Below, piece after piece: positions 11,177 through 31,655 of a DNA stretch of 64,000 nt. Source of the DNA: Octopus vulgaris (taxonomy: Eukaryota). Location of the stretch: positions 11,222,001-11,286,000 of the forward strand of contig OX597828.1 of the NCBI GenBank assembly GCA_951406725.2, in the 5' to 3' direction. The first letter of the stretch is position 1; every line of letters begins with the position of its first letter. The notes below the pieces were generated by a model. The model saw only the letters and a program-made list of their open reading frames with translations, had not been told where the DNA came from and did no database searches. Position numbers and translations under genes: made by a program.

Positions 11177-11308
11177 AAAATCTCTGACGAAGCCTAAAGA
11201 AACATCCAAGCACCTCATTTTCATCTACTAATTACTTCAGTCTACTGGAGGGATAAAGGCAGAATGAGGTATTTTTGCCTCTTGCTTGAAACAGCTGTAA
11301 GATATTTT
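11177..11308 (+). ncRNA. Candidate type I hammerhead ribozyme of a different sequence family, with a long stem II insert
   Basis: ATCT-CTGACGA (11184-11190)-AGC...GCTT-GAAAC-AGCT-GTA (11297-11299)-AGAT. Stem III is the palindrome ACAGCTGT. Stem II closure is imperfect. Confidence 0.6.
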
Positions 11309-12469
11309 CCCAATTTCTATTCCTGTATGTTATATATTTTAATAATTACTGGTATCTTTATATATTTTATATGTAAAGCATAATGTGTTATACATGTATG
11401 TATATTCTTGTAATTGTCATTTTAGTAAGTAAATAAATAAATTGACATAAAATAATGTCTAAAAGTTGATGAACCACCTATTGACTCCCTCCATTTTCTT
11501 ATTGCTCTCTCTCTCTTTCTCTCTCTCGATATATATATATATCTTTATGCAAACACACACACATACGCAAATGCACACGCACACGCACATATATATATAT
11601 ACACACATACACATACTTACCATTAGAGGTCACAGGTATTAGGCTGGAGATAATCATTCTATCATTCCATCATAATATGAGGTAAATATGTCTGCATGTG
11701 TGCGTGTCTGTGTATGAATGTGTACGTATGTGCATGTGTGCGCGTTTGTGTATGTATGCGTGTGTGTGCAGACATGCTTATATTGCATACATTCATGTCC
11801 ATACAATCCACAAAACTCTTTGGAGTCTGATGATATATTAGCATTTATTTTAGTTATATACAGCATATTACAATAATCTACACGTGTTTCCACGTAGAGG
11901 AGCTTTACCAAATATTCACTTCAAAATACAAATTAATAAATACCAGACAAGAACAAGCAGTGGAATGTCTTCACACAAGCATATAAACTTCCAGACAATA
12001 TAAATGAATACATTATACAATATATAATACTAATAAAGTACGGACCAGACCATCAAAACGAATTTAAACAAACAAAAATAATTCTATGCAAACACTGCCC
12101 TCTGAACCAAGGGTAGCACATACAGCTATTAGGACATATTAAGAACATTGAAAAAAAAACTCCAACCTCGATCTATTTTACGACCAGGCCCCAACCTCGT
12201 TCAACAGCGGAGATGAAATCTAGGTCAGATTCTTGTAACTATAAATAACAACAACCCTACCTTCTACGGAATATTAACCAACATAATTTGCAGCCAATTC
12301 ACTTCGAATAAGACAAATGGAGGGTCTCTGATGAAACTGCATTGACAATATTGTAAGGCTGCATCTGCAACAACGTTCAGTCGCTGCAGTGGAAACATCT
12401 GTAAGCCATTGTAATATGCTGTATATCACAATAAAATAAAAATAGTCGATGTACAAGCCGCCAAACTCT

Positions 12470-13526
12470 TTATTGTTATTATTATTATTATTATTATTAT
12501 TATTATTATTATTATTATTATTATTATTATTATCATTATTATTATTATTATTATTATTATTATTATTATTATTATTATTATTATTATTATTATTATTATT
12601 ATTGAGTGAGAGAGCAGTGCATGCCATCAAAGTGACAATGGCGTAAAATATACGAAGTCCAGTATACCCATCATAACTACCCATCCGATAAGAGTACACC
12701 AGGCACATGCATCACAACCATATGTGCGCGACATGGTGATCTCATATCGGGATAAACAGCGCATGACCTTGCAGGTGGTGCCCAGTTAGAATTTTCTTCA
12801 TGCCGAGTAGCCCATCCCGCTCAAAAGGACCCTGAATAAGGGTTGTTTAAGGATGTTGAACGAAACACCCATGTTTCCAGAGGTGAATTATTCAAACCCA
12901 AAGAATCCCTCTCAACACATGGCTATGATGCTCGCTCACTACTTCTCCTCGTGAGCAGAGATGCAGATATCGTTAGCCACTAAGGGACATGCTCAACTGG
13001 TTACGGCCAAACAACTGACAAGCAATTCTGTGGTATTGAGCAGAATATTTGCTGTAGCCCATCTTTTATACCAAGACATAACAATGTACATGATAACACT
13101 TCCAATCAGTTAAGATCAGAAGCCACGAGAGCCATTGCCTGGTACTGCATCAGGGCATCTATTATTATTATTATTATTATTATTATTATTATTATTATTA
13201 TTATTATTATTATTATTATTATTATTATTATTATTATTATTATTATTAATATTATTATTATCATTATTATTATTATTATTATTATCATCATTATCATTAT
13301 TATTATTATTATCATATTATTATTATTATTATTATTATTATTATTATTATTATTATTATTATTATTATTATTATTATTATTATTATTAATATTATTATTA
13401 TCATTATTATTATTATTATTATTATCATCATCATTATCATTATTATTATTATTATCAGTATATTATTATTATTATTATTATTATTATTATTATTATTATT
13501 ATTATTATTATTATTATTATTATTAT
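12470..13526. repeat. (TTA)n microsatellite field interrupted by a ~557-bp element
   Basis: Read directly from the sequence. Confidence 0.95.
12604..13160. mobile_element. Unclassified ~557-bp non-coding insertion within a (TTA)n tract
   Basis: A more GC-rich block with sharp borders, flanked on both sides by pure TTA repeats. Confidence 0.55.
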
Positions 13527-14865
13527 AATATACGTGTGCCCATATCTCCACCACTACTCGACAGCCGGTGTTGGTTTCTTTACGTCTCTACAACATAACG
13601 TTTCGGCAATAGCTACTGATTTCAAAATAAGAAGTGGCATCGATTTGTTGGCCGAAAACACTTTAAGGCGATGCCCCAGCATGACCGCTGCACACTGACT
13701 GAAGCAAAGTAAAAGATAAAAGATACGAAACCACCAAAAACAAATCAAAGTCGAGCACAGAAGAACCTGTTCACCAATTTCGCCATATTTCTTCCAATTA
13801 TCATTTTGGAATAATTTTCTCATTTGTGGCATGGTTTGTCTTGTAAGAGATTTCTATTTCTTCATTGTTTCTAGTTTCATTCTAATTTCTTTCCTGGGAT
13901 GGCATTAGTCTAATCAAATCATTTATCAAGCTACTTGTTAGTTCCGGCACTTCTAAAGATTAGTTCCATATTTGCAAAGAGCACACATAGCTTTATACCC
14001 ACAAGGCATGATTCTTTTTCGTTTTATCGGCGGTGCGGCGAAGCTTCTGTGTTCAACTTCATTTTCATCAAGATGTCAGTACATGGTTGGCCAAACAGGC
14101 CTGCAGCAGTTTGGTAAACACTGCTGCCACAAATGGGATTGTATCGCAGCGTCCATTTTGCAGCCCGGCAGCTATATACACAACACTTCCCTAACATCGT
14201 GCAGAGCATTATACTTGCTATTATATTGACTCGAATCAACAAGAGGCGAAATAGAATTTCATCGTCAGCATGCGCATGCGTGCACAAACATATCTGCTTA
14301 TATTCCGATCTGAACAGTATTCCAAACACGAAAACAGAAAGTTATTATCGTCTGAAAATATCGCTGAAGTAATACGAAGTTATTACACTCTCAAAATACA
14401 CACAGGCGGTTTGCAAAGGCGTTCTTTTCGAGACATATATCCACGATATTTTATTTTCTCTCTTATATCCTGTGCAAATATCAGAAAATAATGTTACAGT
14501 TATTTTCATGTGGCTAATATACCCTTAAATATACCCTTAGAAAATATTCTTAAATTAAGCATTTTGCTAAGTTAGCAATCTTGGCAAGCTCAATATAATT
14601 AGCCGAGTTGATAAAATGTCTACCGGTGATAACAGCGACGGTTTCGCATTTGCCCATTATTACTATACTGTGGGTGTGTTGAGTTAGCCTGACTTATATT
14701 CATAGTAAATATACATCAGTAGGTATCACATCTACATATCAAATTTTCAGTACCTAAAATTGCTTATCTTATCTACAACACGAAAATATTATTATGTTGT
14801 ACTCATATATACATATATATCTAATATTCTTCTGATACAACATTTCTGATGTATTCTTCTTTTTT

Positions 14866-29077: not shown

Positions 29078-30378
29078 CGTGTGGATCTGTGGCTATAAAA
29101 AAATGACAAACGCCCAAAGTGCCACGCAGTAGGATTGAATCTGGAACGTCATGGTTACAAACCCATCTTATTAAACATTCGGCCATATTGCGCCTGCCTA
29201 CCTCTACACAAACCCACACACATACACACACAAACACACACACACATACACACACACATACACACACACATACACACACACACACTCACAAGTCCTCATA
29301 TTTTCCGGCATGTATACATACATTGTGATTTATTCATCTTGACAAATGATCGCTGTCTCCTCTTGCTTCCTCGTTGCCAGTGGCATTTCTGACTTTCCAT
29401 CCATGACACCTAAGATGACTATTCAGCATTGTTGCACATATGCATTGTTTGAAGCATCATAGAGTGACAGCTGAAATTTGTAACTTAATGACCGCTGGCA
29501 ACCAGTTAGTTCTGCACACATCACCACTCTTCCATCGCCATAGGACTTTCAATAAATGGGATGACAAATGAGGTCAACACAAAGAAACATCTGTACATCA
29601 CTAGAATATGATAAACATACATAAATACATACATACACAGAATCATACATACATACAAACATACATAGATAAATTCATACATATATACATACATGTGTAC
29701 GTACATATATGCATACAAACATGCAAACACATACATGCATACATATATACATACATGCGTACATACATATATGCATACATACACAAACATATATATACAT
29801 ACATACAAACACCCTCTCTCTCTCTCTCTCTCTCTCTCTCTCTCTCTCTCTCTCTCTCTCTCTCTCTCTTCACGCACAGAAATATTCCCAAAAATACAAC
29901 TATTATATTTTCGTACAATGTCCACCAAACTGCTCAATAAATCCGAATATGGTATCAAATTCCATCAATTAAGTGTTATAATATAATATAATACAATACA
30001 ATGTAATATACTATACTACAAGGCACATAATGTACTATAATATGATATAATGTATTGTTATGCAAGCGAAATGACACTTGAAAATAAAACAGGTATCATA
30101 TTAAAATATATGTTTATACTATGGACATAAAGCTATGTTACTCGCAAAAATATGCGCATAATAAATAAATATATACACAGGTTGCAGCCACCATCAGACG
30201 CCAAAGCGGACAGTATATGAAAATTGCCAATTGATGTGACGTGGTAGTTAACATAAACTGGAACAGTAATATATCATAAACCGCTGAAATGTCGTAATTT
30301 CAAATTATGTCTATCTAGTTGTAAAGCATTGCAGCTGTGTTGTATATGTTCATGTGTGCGTACGTTTGTGTGTGCGTG

Positions 30379-30657
30379 TGAGAAGCGTGGCCAAGTGACC
30401 AGGGTGTTGCATTCACGATCGTGAGTTCGTGGTTTCAATTCGCAGTGTGGCTCTGCGTTGTTTTTCATGAGCACAATTCTTCACTTAACTATGTTCCAGT
30501 CCATTCGTCTGTAAATTGGTAATCTTTCGACAGTCTGAGGTTTCGTTCGCGCAGAATATTGGCCAGCGGGGTAGCATCATTTTACAGCTAAACAATGTGA
30601 AGTACATTGTGACCAGCGTTGTATAACAACATCTGATAGTCTGAATGATACCGTGAT
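30379..30657 (+). mobile_element. SINE family C, head Y + tail Q
   Basis: The head resembles the 43630 copy. The tail GCCAGCGGGGT...CATTGTGACCAGCG...CAACATCTGATAG matches the 22649 copy. Confidence 0.7.
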
Positions 30658-31614
30658 ATATATATATATACACTCAAATATATATATATATACATATATA
30701 TATATATATACATTCATATATATATATATATATATATATATATATATATATATACACACTCATATATATATATATACGTATATTGGAGCCACGAAGGACC
30801 CGTCGTGCGAAAGCTAGTCGATCCTACAGCCTTATGATCGTGAGCTGAATGCCCTAATCACTAATTCATGAAGCAATACACTATAAACTAGGAGGGAGAG
30901 TCTACACAAAAGGAGGGGCTGCTTTCTTTTCAATGCACTTGGTCCAGTGGTCCACAAGCTTGCGCATTACCTTCAAGAAGAAGGTTTCAGAACAAAGCTG
31001 CTCTTTGTTCTTCTTTGGTGCAAATTGCTAGTGGAGCGGCCATGCTTACACTGTAAAGCCAGAACGGAAAATGATACGATAAACCTCAAACTTAGATCAA
31101 ATGACCACATTAGTACCAACTATAAGCACGCATGTGCAGAAGGTAATGGGACAATAATAAAAATCTGTTATGGCGAAAGGGCGGATAATTGTTGACCTCC
31201 CCTCGTAGACTAGAAACCCTTAGACAAGTATGGCACGTTCAGGAATTGAAATCCCAATAAAGGTCAATCAAGCAATATTATTTTATGGCATAATTTTTAG
31301 AACAAAATCACCATAAGCCAAGAAATTTATATAAAAGGAGTTCAATCCTACCCCTATAACAACTTCAGTTTCAATGAAAGACACCTTAGAATCACGAGAA
31401 CACAAGATTCTCAGTAAACTATCATATCAAGCGTACATATGAAACATCAGCTGCTAACAGATGTGTGTGCGTTTGCGTATGTGTGTGTACCAGTGCGTGT
31501 AGATATATATATATATATGTGTGCGTGTGTGTGTGTGTGTGTGTGTATATGTATTCCTGTATGTATATATATATTTATATGTGTGTGTGCATGCATGTAT
31601 GTGCATATATATAT

Positions 31615-31655
31615 ATGATGAATGACTTGAAATTAACAGCCATGAAACGATCGTA
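31615..31655 (+). ncRNA. 5'-truncated type I hammerhead motif
   Basis: ATGATGA-ATGACT...AGCCAT-GAAAC-GATC-GTA. The first core C and the 5' strand of stem I are replaced by (TA)n. Confidence 0.45.

Follow-up and report, generated by a model that had tools for sequence, protein, structure and literature searches.

A total of seven hammerhead ribozyme motifs were identified in a stretch of 64,000 nucleotides of Octopus vulgaris DNA (contig OX597828.1, positions 11,222,001 to 11,286,000), which is AT-rich, microsatellite-dense animal DNA and is hereafter called the window; positions are counted from its first letter. An earlier note, made from the letters alone, had proposed that a hammerhead design with an extended stem II, a palindromic stem III and a GUA cut site recurs here in dissimilar repeats, namely in three motifs (m1, m2 and m3) besides a pair of repeat copies near 10.2 kb. 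All three motifs were present, and two more, at 11890 and 12328, were absent from that note. The motifs and the repeat copies that carry them are the following.

10216..11013, + strand: partial tandem of about 1.6 units, with copies at 10216-10519 and 10709-11013, ending at (TA)n
10273..10383, + strand: pair A, intact hammerhead with a stem I of 6 bp, an 80-nt stem II hairpin and the palindrome ACCATGGT; predicted cut after 10377
10765..10875, + strand: pair B, intact hammerhead with ACGATGGT; predicted cut after 10869
11153..11495, + strand: copy of a high-copy repeat bearing m1, lying between microsatellites, with AATAAA at 11432 and 11436
11180..11303, + strand: m1, type I hammerhead, predicted cut after 11299; ATCT at 11180-83, CTGACGA core at 11184-90, stem II domain of 97 nt at 11191-11287, GAAAC-AGCT-GTA at 11288-99 followed by AGAT, palindrome ACAGCTGT at 11291-11298
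11832..12455, no single strand: two truncated related copies arranged head to head, 3' ends outward, bringing the 11890 and 12328 motifs about 500 bp apart
11844..11974, - strand: 11890 motif, of which the core, GTGAAGA, is decayed and lies 84 nt upstream of GAAAC-ACGT-GTA (11890-11879)
12324..12407, + strand: 12328 hammerhead, with CTGATGA at 12328-12334, a 57-nt stem II domain and GAAAC-ATCT-GTA at 12392-12403
14870..14976, + strand: m2, decayed hammerhead, with TTGAGGA core at 14870-76 and GAAAC-GATC-GTA at 14965-76
14968-14975, + strand: palindrome ACGATCGT of m2; the tail reaches (TA)n near 15152
31615..31655, + strand: m3, hammerhead remnant, with (A)TGATGA at 31615-21 abutting (TA)n and GAAAC-GATC-GTA at 31644-55
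31647-31654, + strand: palindrome ACGATCGT of m3; the tail runs to about 31885 and then into (TA)n
35777..35898, + strand: tail-only copy of the 3' end of the m3 element (86% by blastn over 122 columns, partly TA runs), between TA-rich runs
10366, 11288, 14965 and 31644 on the + strand and 11890 on the - strand: palindromic GAAAC-N4-GTA sites from the window scan

The scan covered both strands for GAAAC-NNNN-GTH and then the core and stems upstream. Among the 12 sites found, five carry a palindromic tetraloop, every one of which ends in GTA. GAAAC-palindrome-GTA occurred at means of 0.11-0.33 in shuffled sequence (four schemes, 150 shuffles each), and five or more in none of the 600 shuffles, so that the excess over shuffled controls asked of the proposal is found within the window. 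The tetraloops are of four kinds, CATG, AGCT, GATC and ACGT, distributed over five of the seven motifs, and palindromic 4-mers make up 9% of the window. A core with at most one mismatch and a stem II of 2-5 bp lie upstream of all five perfect palindromic sites; in comparison, six of the seven sites that are one mismatch off in the fixed letters have no such upstream core. With the 3' half held fixed, chance supplied a 5' half to match for m2 in 3 of 2000 shuffles (unlikely), for m3 in 48 of 2000 (marginal), and for the decayed window copy of m1 in 313 of 2000, which is not significant alone. The hammerhead motifs are genuine, beyond chance.

The core CUGANGA...GAAA...UH is intact in pair A, pair B, 12328 and m1, the last having been described correctly as intact by the earlier note (CTGACGA), and a single core mismatch is carried by m2 (U at position 3), m3 and 11890. 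U at this position also occurs among the hammerheads of Penelope-like elements (PLEs) described in PMC4209133. Three closed stems, stem I being open-ended, are formed by the pair as it stands and by m1 after the majority letters of its family are put in (see below), and are not formed in the window copies of m2 (at stem I) and m3. The 100 nt on the 3' side of the motifs are 78-88% AT (63% for the window), and (TA)5 follows within 147-231 nt at five of the six cut sites measured (background, 19% of positions within 250 nt). These five comprise all the motifs known to the earlier note, whose description of AT-rich tails near (TA)n is borne out; the exception, 12328, is followed instead by AATAAA (12430 and 12435) and (TTA)n. 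A tail word 14-33 nt past the cut site, picked after inspection, is common to m1, m3, 12328 and 11890, and three further occurrences of this word have no hammerhead upstream. The GAAAC-NNNN-GTH sites on non-palindromic loops at 29584, 51090, 22553 and 58859 have no common flanks by blastn.

A stem II domain of 57-97 nt is present in six of the seven motifs. The extended stem II that the title of the earlier note gives as common to the design is found in m1 (97 nt) and m2 (88 nt) but not in m3, of which the stem II of 22 nt and 3 bp is predicted at 0 kcal/mol and is unstructured. In m1 the core is intact and stem I is 4 bp, and stem II of the window copy is closed by 2 bp only. In m2 the 88-nt domain (80 nt inside) is closed by GAAT...ATTC, stem I is broken beside the core, and the insert is an AT-rich near-palindrome (folding z -1.67), the closing stem being absent from the best fold. 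m3 ends on its 5' side where the core meets (TA)n, and has no real 5' strand of stem I. As solo copies, m1, m2 and m3 have decayed and are probably inactive. Little primary sequence was said to be shared with the 10.2-kb pair; the inserts of different families indeed do not align, but m2 has the junction words GAGAAT...ATTCGAAAC in common with the pair. Likewise, the listed motifs are all on the + strand as described, but 11890 is on the - strand (12328, on the + strand, was also missed), and rather than one diversified family the set looks like several separate repeat families. At the 3' end of the m3 family, just before (TA)n, a 10-bp hairpin was noted by eye at 35809-35832, where the tail-only copy has it without mismatch, and in the corresponding part of 31786-31900; it is a candidate recognition signal for reverse transcription.

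Family depth was estimated by aligning public runs (four of 24, contigs only, 80% identity) to 11080-12475, which covers m1, 12328 and 11890. The depth ratio, that is summed word depth over single-locus contig depth and not a copy number, was 545-1605 (X1) and 248-565 (X8) for the m1 ribozyme, up to 3982 (X1) and 1560 (X8) for the m1 tail, and 15-51 for the 12328 family. Depth climbs toward the 3' end for m1, 12328 and 11890, and m1 is clearly a member of a very high-copy repeat with coverage rising in the 3' direction. Variants were taken from the best-supported 40 of 181. At five positions of m1 stem II (11197, 11211, 11260, 11285 and 11286), the majority letter, carried by 97-100% of depth in both X1 and X8, restores a pair. 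The repaired stem II starts with AGCC/GGCU and U.U and continues as a long irregular hairpin; the repair gains 14.2 kcal/mol, matched by none of 3000 random five-letter changes, and shifts z from -0.75 to -4.3 (0 of 300 shuffles). No variant in the m1 core or palindrome was present among these best 40 of 181. The claim of ribozyme-bearing repeats is upheld; in m1, the listed copy covered by these data, the long stem II is fully paired again once the majority letters of its high-copy repeat are put in. For 12328, of which the window copy has A.G at the stem II base, two majority letters (12325 and 12406) restore a 4-bp stem I and three (12354/12377 and 12359) restore stem II pairs, with z moving from -1.0 to -2.4 (36 of 3000 random changes). 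The 80-nt arm of the pair folds at z about -4 without any repair. Judging by these predicted folds, stem II was a folded arm of 57-97 nt in the elements from which m1, 12328 and the pair descend, and the window copies of m1 and 12328 have decayed. A 20-nt m1 pattern gave a single match in metagenome contigs (L001), which was rejected as chance, with no CTGANGA within 180 nt upstream.

The two copies of the tandem near 10.2 kb are 95% alike over 306 columns (blastn), and their cores are 492 bp apart. ACGATGGT of pair B (10861-10868) is one letter off both ACCATGGT of pair A and ACGATCGT of m2 and m3, like an intermediate. The 492-nt unit between the cut sites is 33% GC, and its circular fold has z -4.75 (0 of 40 shuffles) with 66% of the bases paired. 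The retrozyme pattern, in which non-coding units of low GC lie in tandem and each carries one type I hammerhead, is seen in this pair only, and not in m1, m2 or m3. On the 5' side of the tandem, 10050-10222 is a microsatellite-rich inverted copy, about 170 bp long, of 8963-9140, about 1 kb upstream (93% over 76 blastn columns, the remainder by eye), possibly made during insertion.

The 11890 and 12328 motifs share a 52-bp tail, 83% alike, that ends in AATAAA, and depth over the head-to-head pair peaks at both outer ends. Pieces of its left and right arms are joined at other breakpoints in five of the best 15 of 21 joints in public contigs, and therefore the head-to-head arrangement recurs elsewhere. 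Upstream of the 12328 core, at 12208-12327, the frames appear by eye faintly like the end of a PLE endonuclease, and gave no match to Pfam.

None of these motifs is recovered by the usual searches. With Rfam on the whole window no match reached the gathering score, and only microsatellite-driven miRNA matches were among the best 150 of 309; at E 10, no hammerhead family was matched by the pair or by m1. A re-implementation of a published short-loop descriptor with loop 2 of at most 10 nt (PMC4209133) detected no motif in the window, versus three with the loop opened to 150 nt, as expected from the suggestion that long inserts escape descriptors limiting loop length.

The motifs probably represent type I hammerheads in the 3' terminal repeats of several PLE families, or of short non-autonomous derivatives, in this octopod genome, a context that the earlier note does not name. 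This reading is favoured by the high motif count, the palindromic tetraloops, the depth and majority letters, and the inverted pair together with the tandem. It is also favoured by the double-hammerhead fold of the pair, by the shrimp and Octopus PLE hammerheads compared below, and by the Argonauta protein match of a repeat-derived ORF. Among the traits of PLEs, those seen here are 5'-truncated dispersed copies (by depth for m1, 12328 and 11890, and by the tail-only copy of m3), an inverted truncated partner (11832-12455), a partial tandem (10216-11013), and a hammerhead near the 3' end in a (TA)n microsatellite context. In such elements, the reverse transcriptase with its GIY-YIG endonuclease would copy RNA from the 3' end into (TA)n targets, and as copying would mostly halt early, the ribozyme-bearing tail alone would remain. 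The hammerhead would cut after GUA in the source or tandem transcript; its stem III of 2 bp being weak, the 8-nt palindrome would let two copies pair as a double hammerhead, from which RNA of unit length (492 nt in the case of the pair) would be freed, possibly circularising. The long stem II would most simply be an extension of loop II that is tolerated but kept folded, and solo copies would decay later. By folding, the palindromes are predicted to form an 8-bp duplex between two copies at -10 to -11 kcal/mol, and the 2-bp stem III hairpin costs +2.4 to +2.9. For the tandem transcript of the pair, the double-hammerhead fold reaches -161.9 versus -156.8 for two single hammerheads, i.e. 5.1 kcal/mol better.

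Several observations weigh against this reading or parts of it. No remnant of a reverse transcriptase or GIY-YIG domain was detected by Pfam in 24 frames beside the motifs, and 100 of 221 filtered open reading frames (ORFs) gave a mariner transposase only; the hammerhead-bearing copies are under about 800 bp, and PLE membership rests on architecture because no such coding trace was found. At 80% identity, unrelated matches to the AT-rich tail may raise the depth, and the family data are confined to m1, 12328 and 11890. Repair of private mutations points to a hairpin in the ancestor; it does not amount to covariation or selection. Left unconstrained, the tandem transcript folds at -169.9, 8 kcal/mol below the double-hammerhead fold, and dependence on dimers is not forced, because invertebrate type I hammerheads with 2 bp and a tetraloop have been reported to cut as monomers (PMC7229834, PMC7761336). 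In addition, insertion of an anole PLE in vitro is reported as not requiring cleavage (PMC11167929).

An alternative to PLE terminal repeats is that the copies are purely retrozymes without long terminal repeats (non-LTR retrozymes), i.e. short non-coding tandem units that are cut into unit lengths and closed into circles, no coding PLE body preceding them. The 10.2-kb pair fits this best with its 492-nt unit of low GC and well-paired circle, no ORF emerged from the Pfam searches (24 frames beside the motifs and 100 of 221 filtered ORFs), and reported retrozyme units span 51-972 bp, many being solo monomers (Li et al. 2026, bioRxiv 10.64898/2026.07.22.740005). The other five motifs, however, are solo or head-to-head, with depth falling in the 5' direction over hundreds of bases as fits truncated longer elements, and no array of more than two units exists in the window, so that we regard a purely retrozyme origin as rather improbable. 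The two readings overlap, since retrozymes have been proposed to derive from PLE terminal repeats. Hammerhead-bearing short interspersed elements (SINEs) or the 3' ends of ordinary long interspersed elements (LINEs), moved by non-PLE machinery like the schistosome hammerhead SINEs, would also account for copies that are truncated at the 5' end, have AT-rich tails and stop at microsatellites, and no repeat orders of Octopus vulgaris are larger than LINEs and SINEs (PMC13282606); nevertheless, a recurring head-to-head pair, a partial tandem, a type I hammerhead close to the 3' end and a palindromic stem III are described as PLE traits (PMC4209133, PMC8557442), and this origin is very unlikely.

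A separate issue is the nature of the long stem II. It may be unselected, a hairpin like a miniature inverted-repeat transposable element (MITE) or born by slippage and carried in loop II, with m2 and m3 partly chance or dead. The near-palindromic insert of m2 with its unused closing stem, the lack of structure in m3 and the failure of inserts of different families to align are all consistent with such a passenger. On the other hand, three unrelated inserts (pair, m1 majority and 12328 majority) extend the closing stem, with z from -2.4 to -4.3, and the overall motif count is far above chance; we therefore hold the passenger hairpin to be possible but doubtful. At the opposite end, octopod genomes would hold thousands of hammerheads of a hitherto undescribed long-arm class (stem II 57-97 nt, arisen in several PLE or retrozyme families), unseen by Rfam and short-loop descriptors and with a functional arm. 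The first bulge of the arm might pair with the stem I 5' flank and replace the loop I/II contact, or might switch off the core, or else the long duplex might be gripped by a protein or by RNA editing and so tune cleavage. Taken jointly, this is unlikely. A short loop II, on which the loop I/II contact usually depends, is absent from the motifs. In three of the five families, the sequence 5' of stem I is complementary over 4-5 bp to the proximal strand of stem II (background, 13% for at least 4 bp; windows chosen afterwards), with a free bulge used by this match in the pair only; it hints at a tertiary contact or an off-switch without amounting to a finding.

Compared with the metazoan PLE hammerheads of Cervera and De la Pena 2014 (PMC4209133), for which palindromic helix III, action as dimers, strong diversity and opposite-strand pairs 100-700 bp apart are described, the present motifs have the same CUGANGA and GAAA cores (with U3 as a natural variant), a stem I that is likewise short, a palindromic stem/loop III and AU-rich flanks. 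Families are again highly diverse, most copies stand alone, and pairs on opposite strands occur in both sets. In the alignment of the same paper, a shrimp PLE hammerhead has an AGCC/GGCU stem II identical to that of the m1 majority. Conservation of structure rather than sequence, as put forward in the earlier note, therefore fits but is already published for PLE hammerheads with palindromic stem III, and only the arm length is unusual: in print, helix II has about 3-8 bp and its loop 3-10 nt, in contrast to the 57-97-nt domain here. A further difference from metazoan PLE hammerheads is that no PLE ORF is tied to the window copies. The catalytic consensus is the same as in the list of Perreault et al. 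2011 (PMC3088659).

Truncation, inversion, partial tandems and (TA)n targets are given as PLE hallmarks by Craig et al. 2021 (PMC8557442), to which the inverted pair and partial tandem of the window correspond. The same source lists Hydra-1_oBim, a PLE of Octopus bimaculoides with a 3'-terminal type I hammerhead and (TA)n targets (File S2), and, among Hydra-clade and Chlamys/PLE-X elements, 8-nt perfect palindromes (aagc.gctt) and a stem II domain of about 53 nt in the spike-moss PLE-X1_sMoe. Stem II of Hydra-1_oBim differs from those found here, with 7 bp, an 8-nt loop and another sequence, and none of eight window words occurs in the text of the supplement, in which line breaks can hide matches. 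That the motifs are the missing hammerheads of Octopus Naiads is not supported, as the Naiad_Ovul end in PMC8557442 has, by eye, GAAAC before CTGATGA and hence another layout. The 3' 'half core' ends of Naiad_Obim and Naiad_Ovul (File S5) both have this order amid two crossing helices, and might be a permuted hammerhead or another ribozyme.

The 10.2-kb pair resembles non-LTR retrozymes (PMC7229834; bioRxiv 10.64898/2026.07.22.740005) in its low-GC tandem, one type I hammerhead per unit, predicted self-paired circle and helix III of 2 bp plus tetraloop, and differs from them in the 492-nt unit (150-450 bp as first described), the 1.6 units and the lack of a canonical short loop II. One of nine retrozyme dimers tested was reported to cleave (bioRxiv 10.64898/2026.07.22.740005). 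Recently active PLE families are reported in O. vulgaris, with no mention of ribozymes by word search of that source (PMC13282606). Literature searches gave no report of a 57-97-nt stem II arm for PLE hammerheads, their coverage ending short of figures, the Perreault descriptor file and Lunse et al. 2017, which may describe such arms.

Other features of the window are as follows.

50631-51455, + strand: mariner-type transposase ORF of 275 aa (Pfam Transposase_1, E 2.9e-22)
50097-50414, - strand: ORF that we take to resemble the C-terminus of RTE-type LINE ORF2; no Pfam match
28359-28766, - strand: frame presumably resembling a Tc1-type transposase fragment
27933-28264, 33136-33688, 55836-56669 and 60073-60367: many SINE-like copies of 170-330 bp, in both orientations, 82-95% alike

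The repeat-derived ORF 205-525 had a single protein match, from the octopod Argonauta hians (71% over 38% of the query). ORF 13557-13853, gene-like in appearance, was rejected as a gene, with no homologue found, and presumably overlies a common repeat.

Palindromic stem III, the GUA site, sequence diversity, (TA)n targets and an Octopus PLE hammerhead are already published, and the sole feature found here beyond print is the stem II of 57-97 nt, the longest that the literature searches gave being about 53 nt. What is gained is thus a variant structure and a fix for searches; the mechanism is not new. The motifs are natural constructs for asking what PLE hammerheads do and whether dimers are needed. 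They also mark a blind spot in ribozyme surveys, as seven motifs in 64 kb, at least one of them from a very high-copy family, are missed by Rfam and by a descriptor with a 10-nt loop. If the long-arm reading were true, counts of PLE families 'without hammerheads' would need an open-loop re-scan, and if the blind spot is general, a large set of hammerheads would be uncounted in cephalopods.

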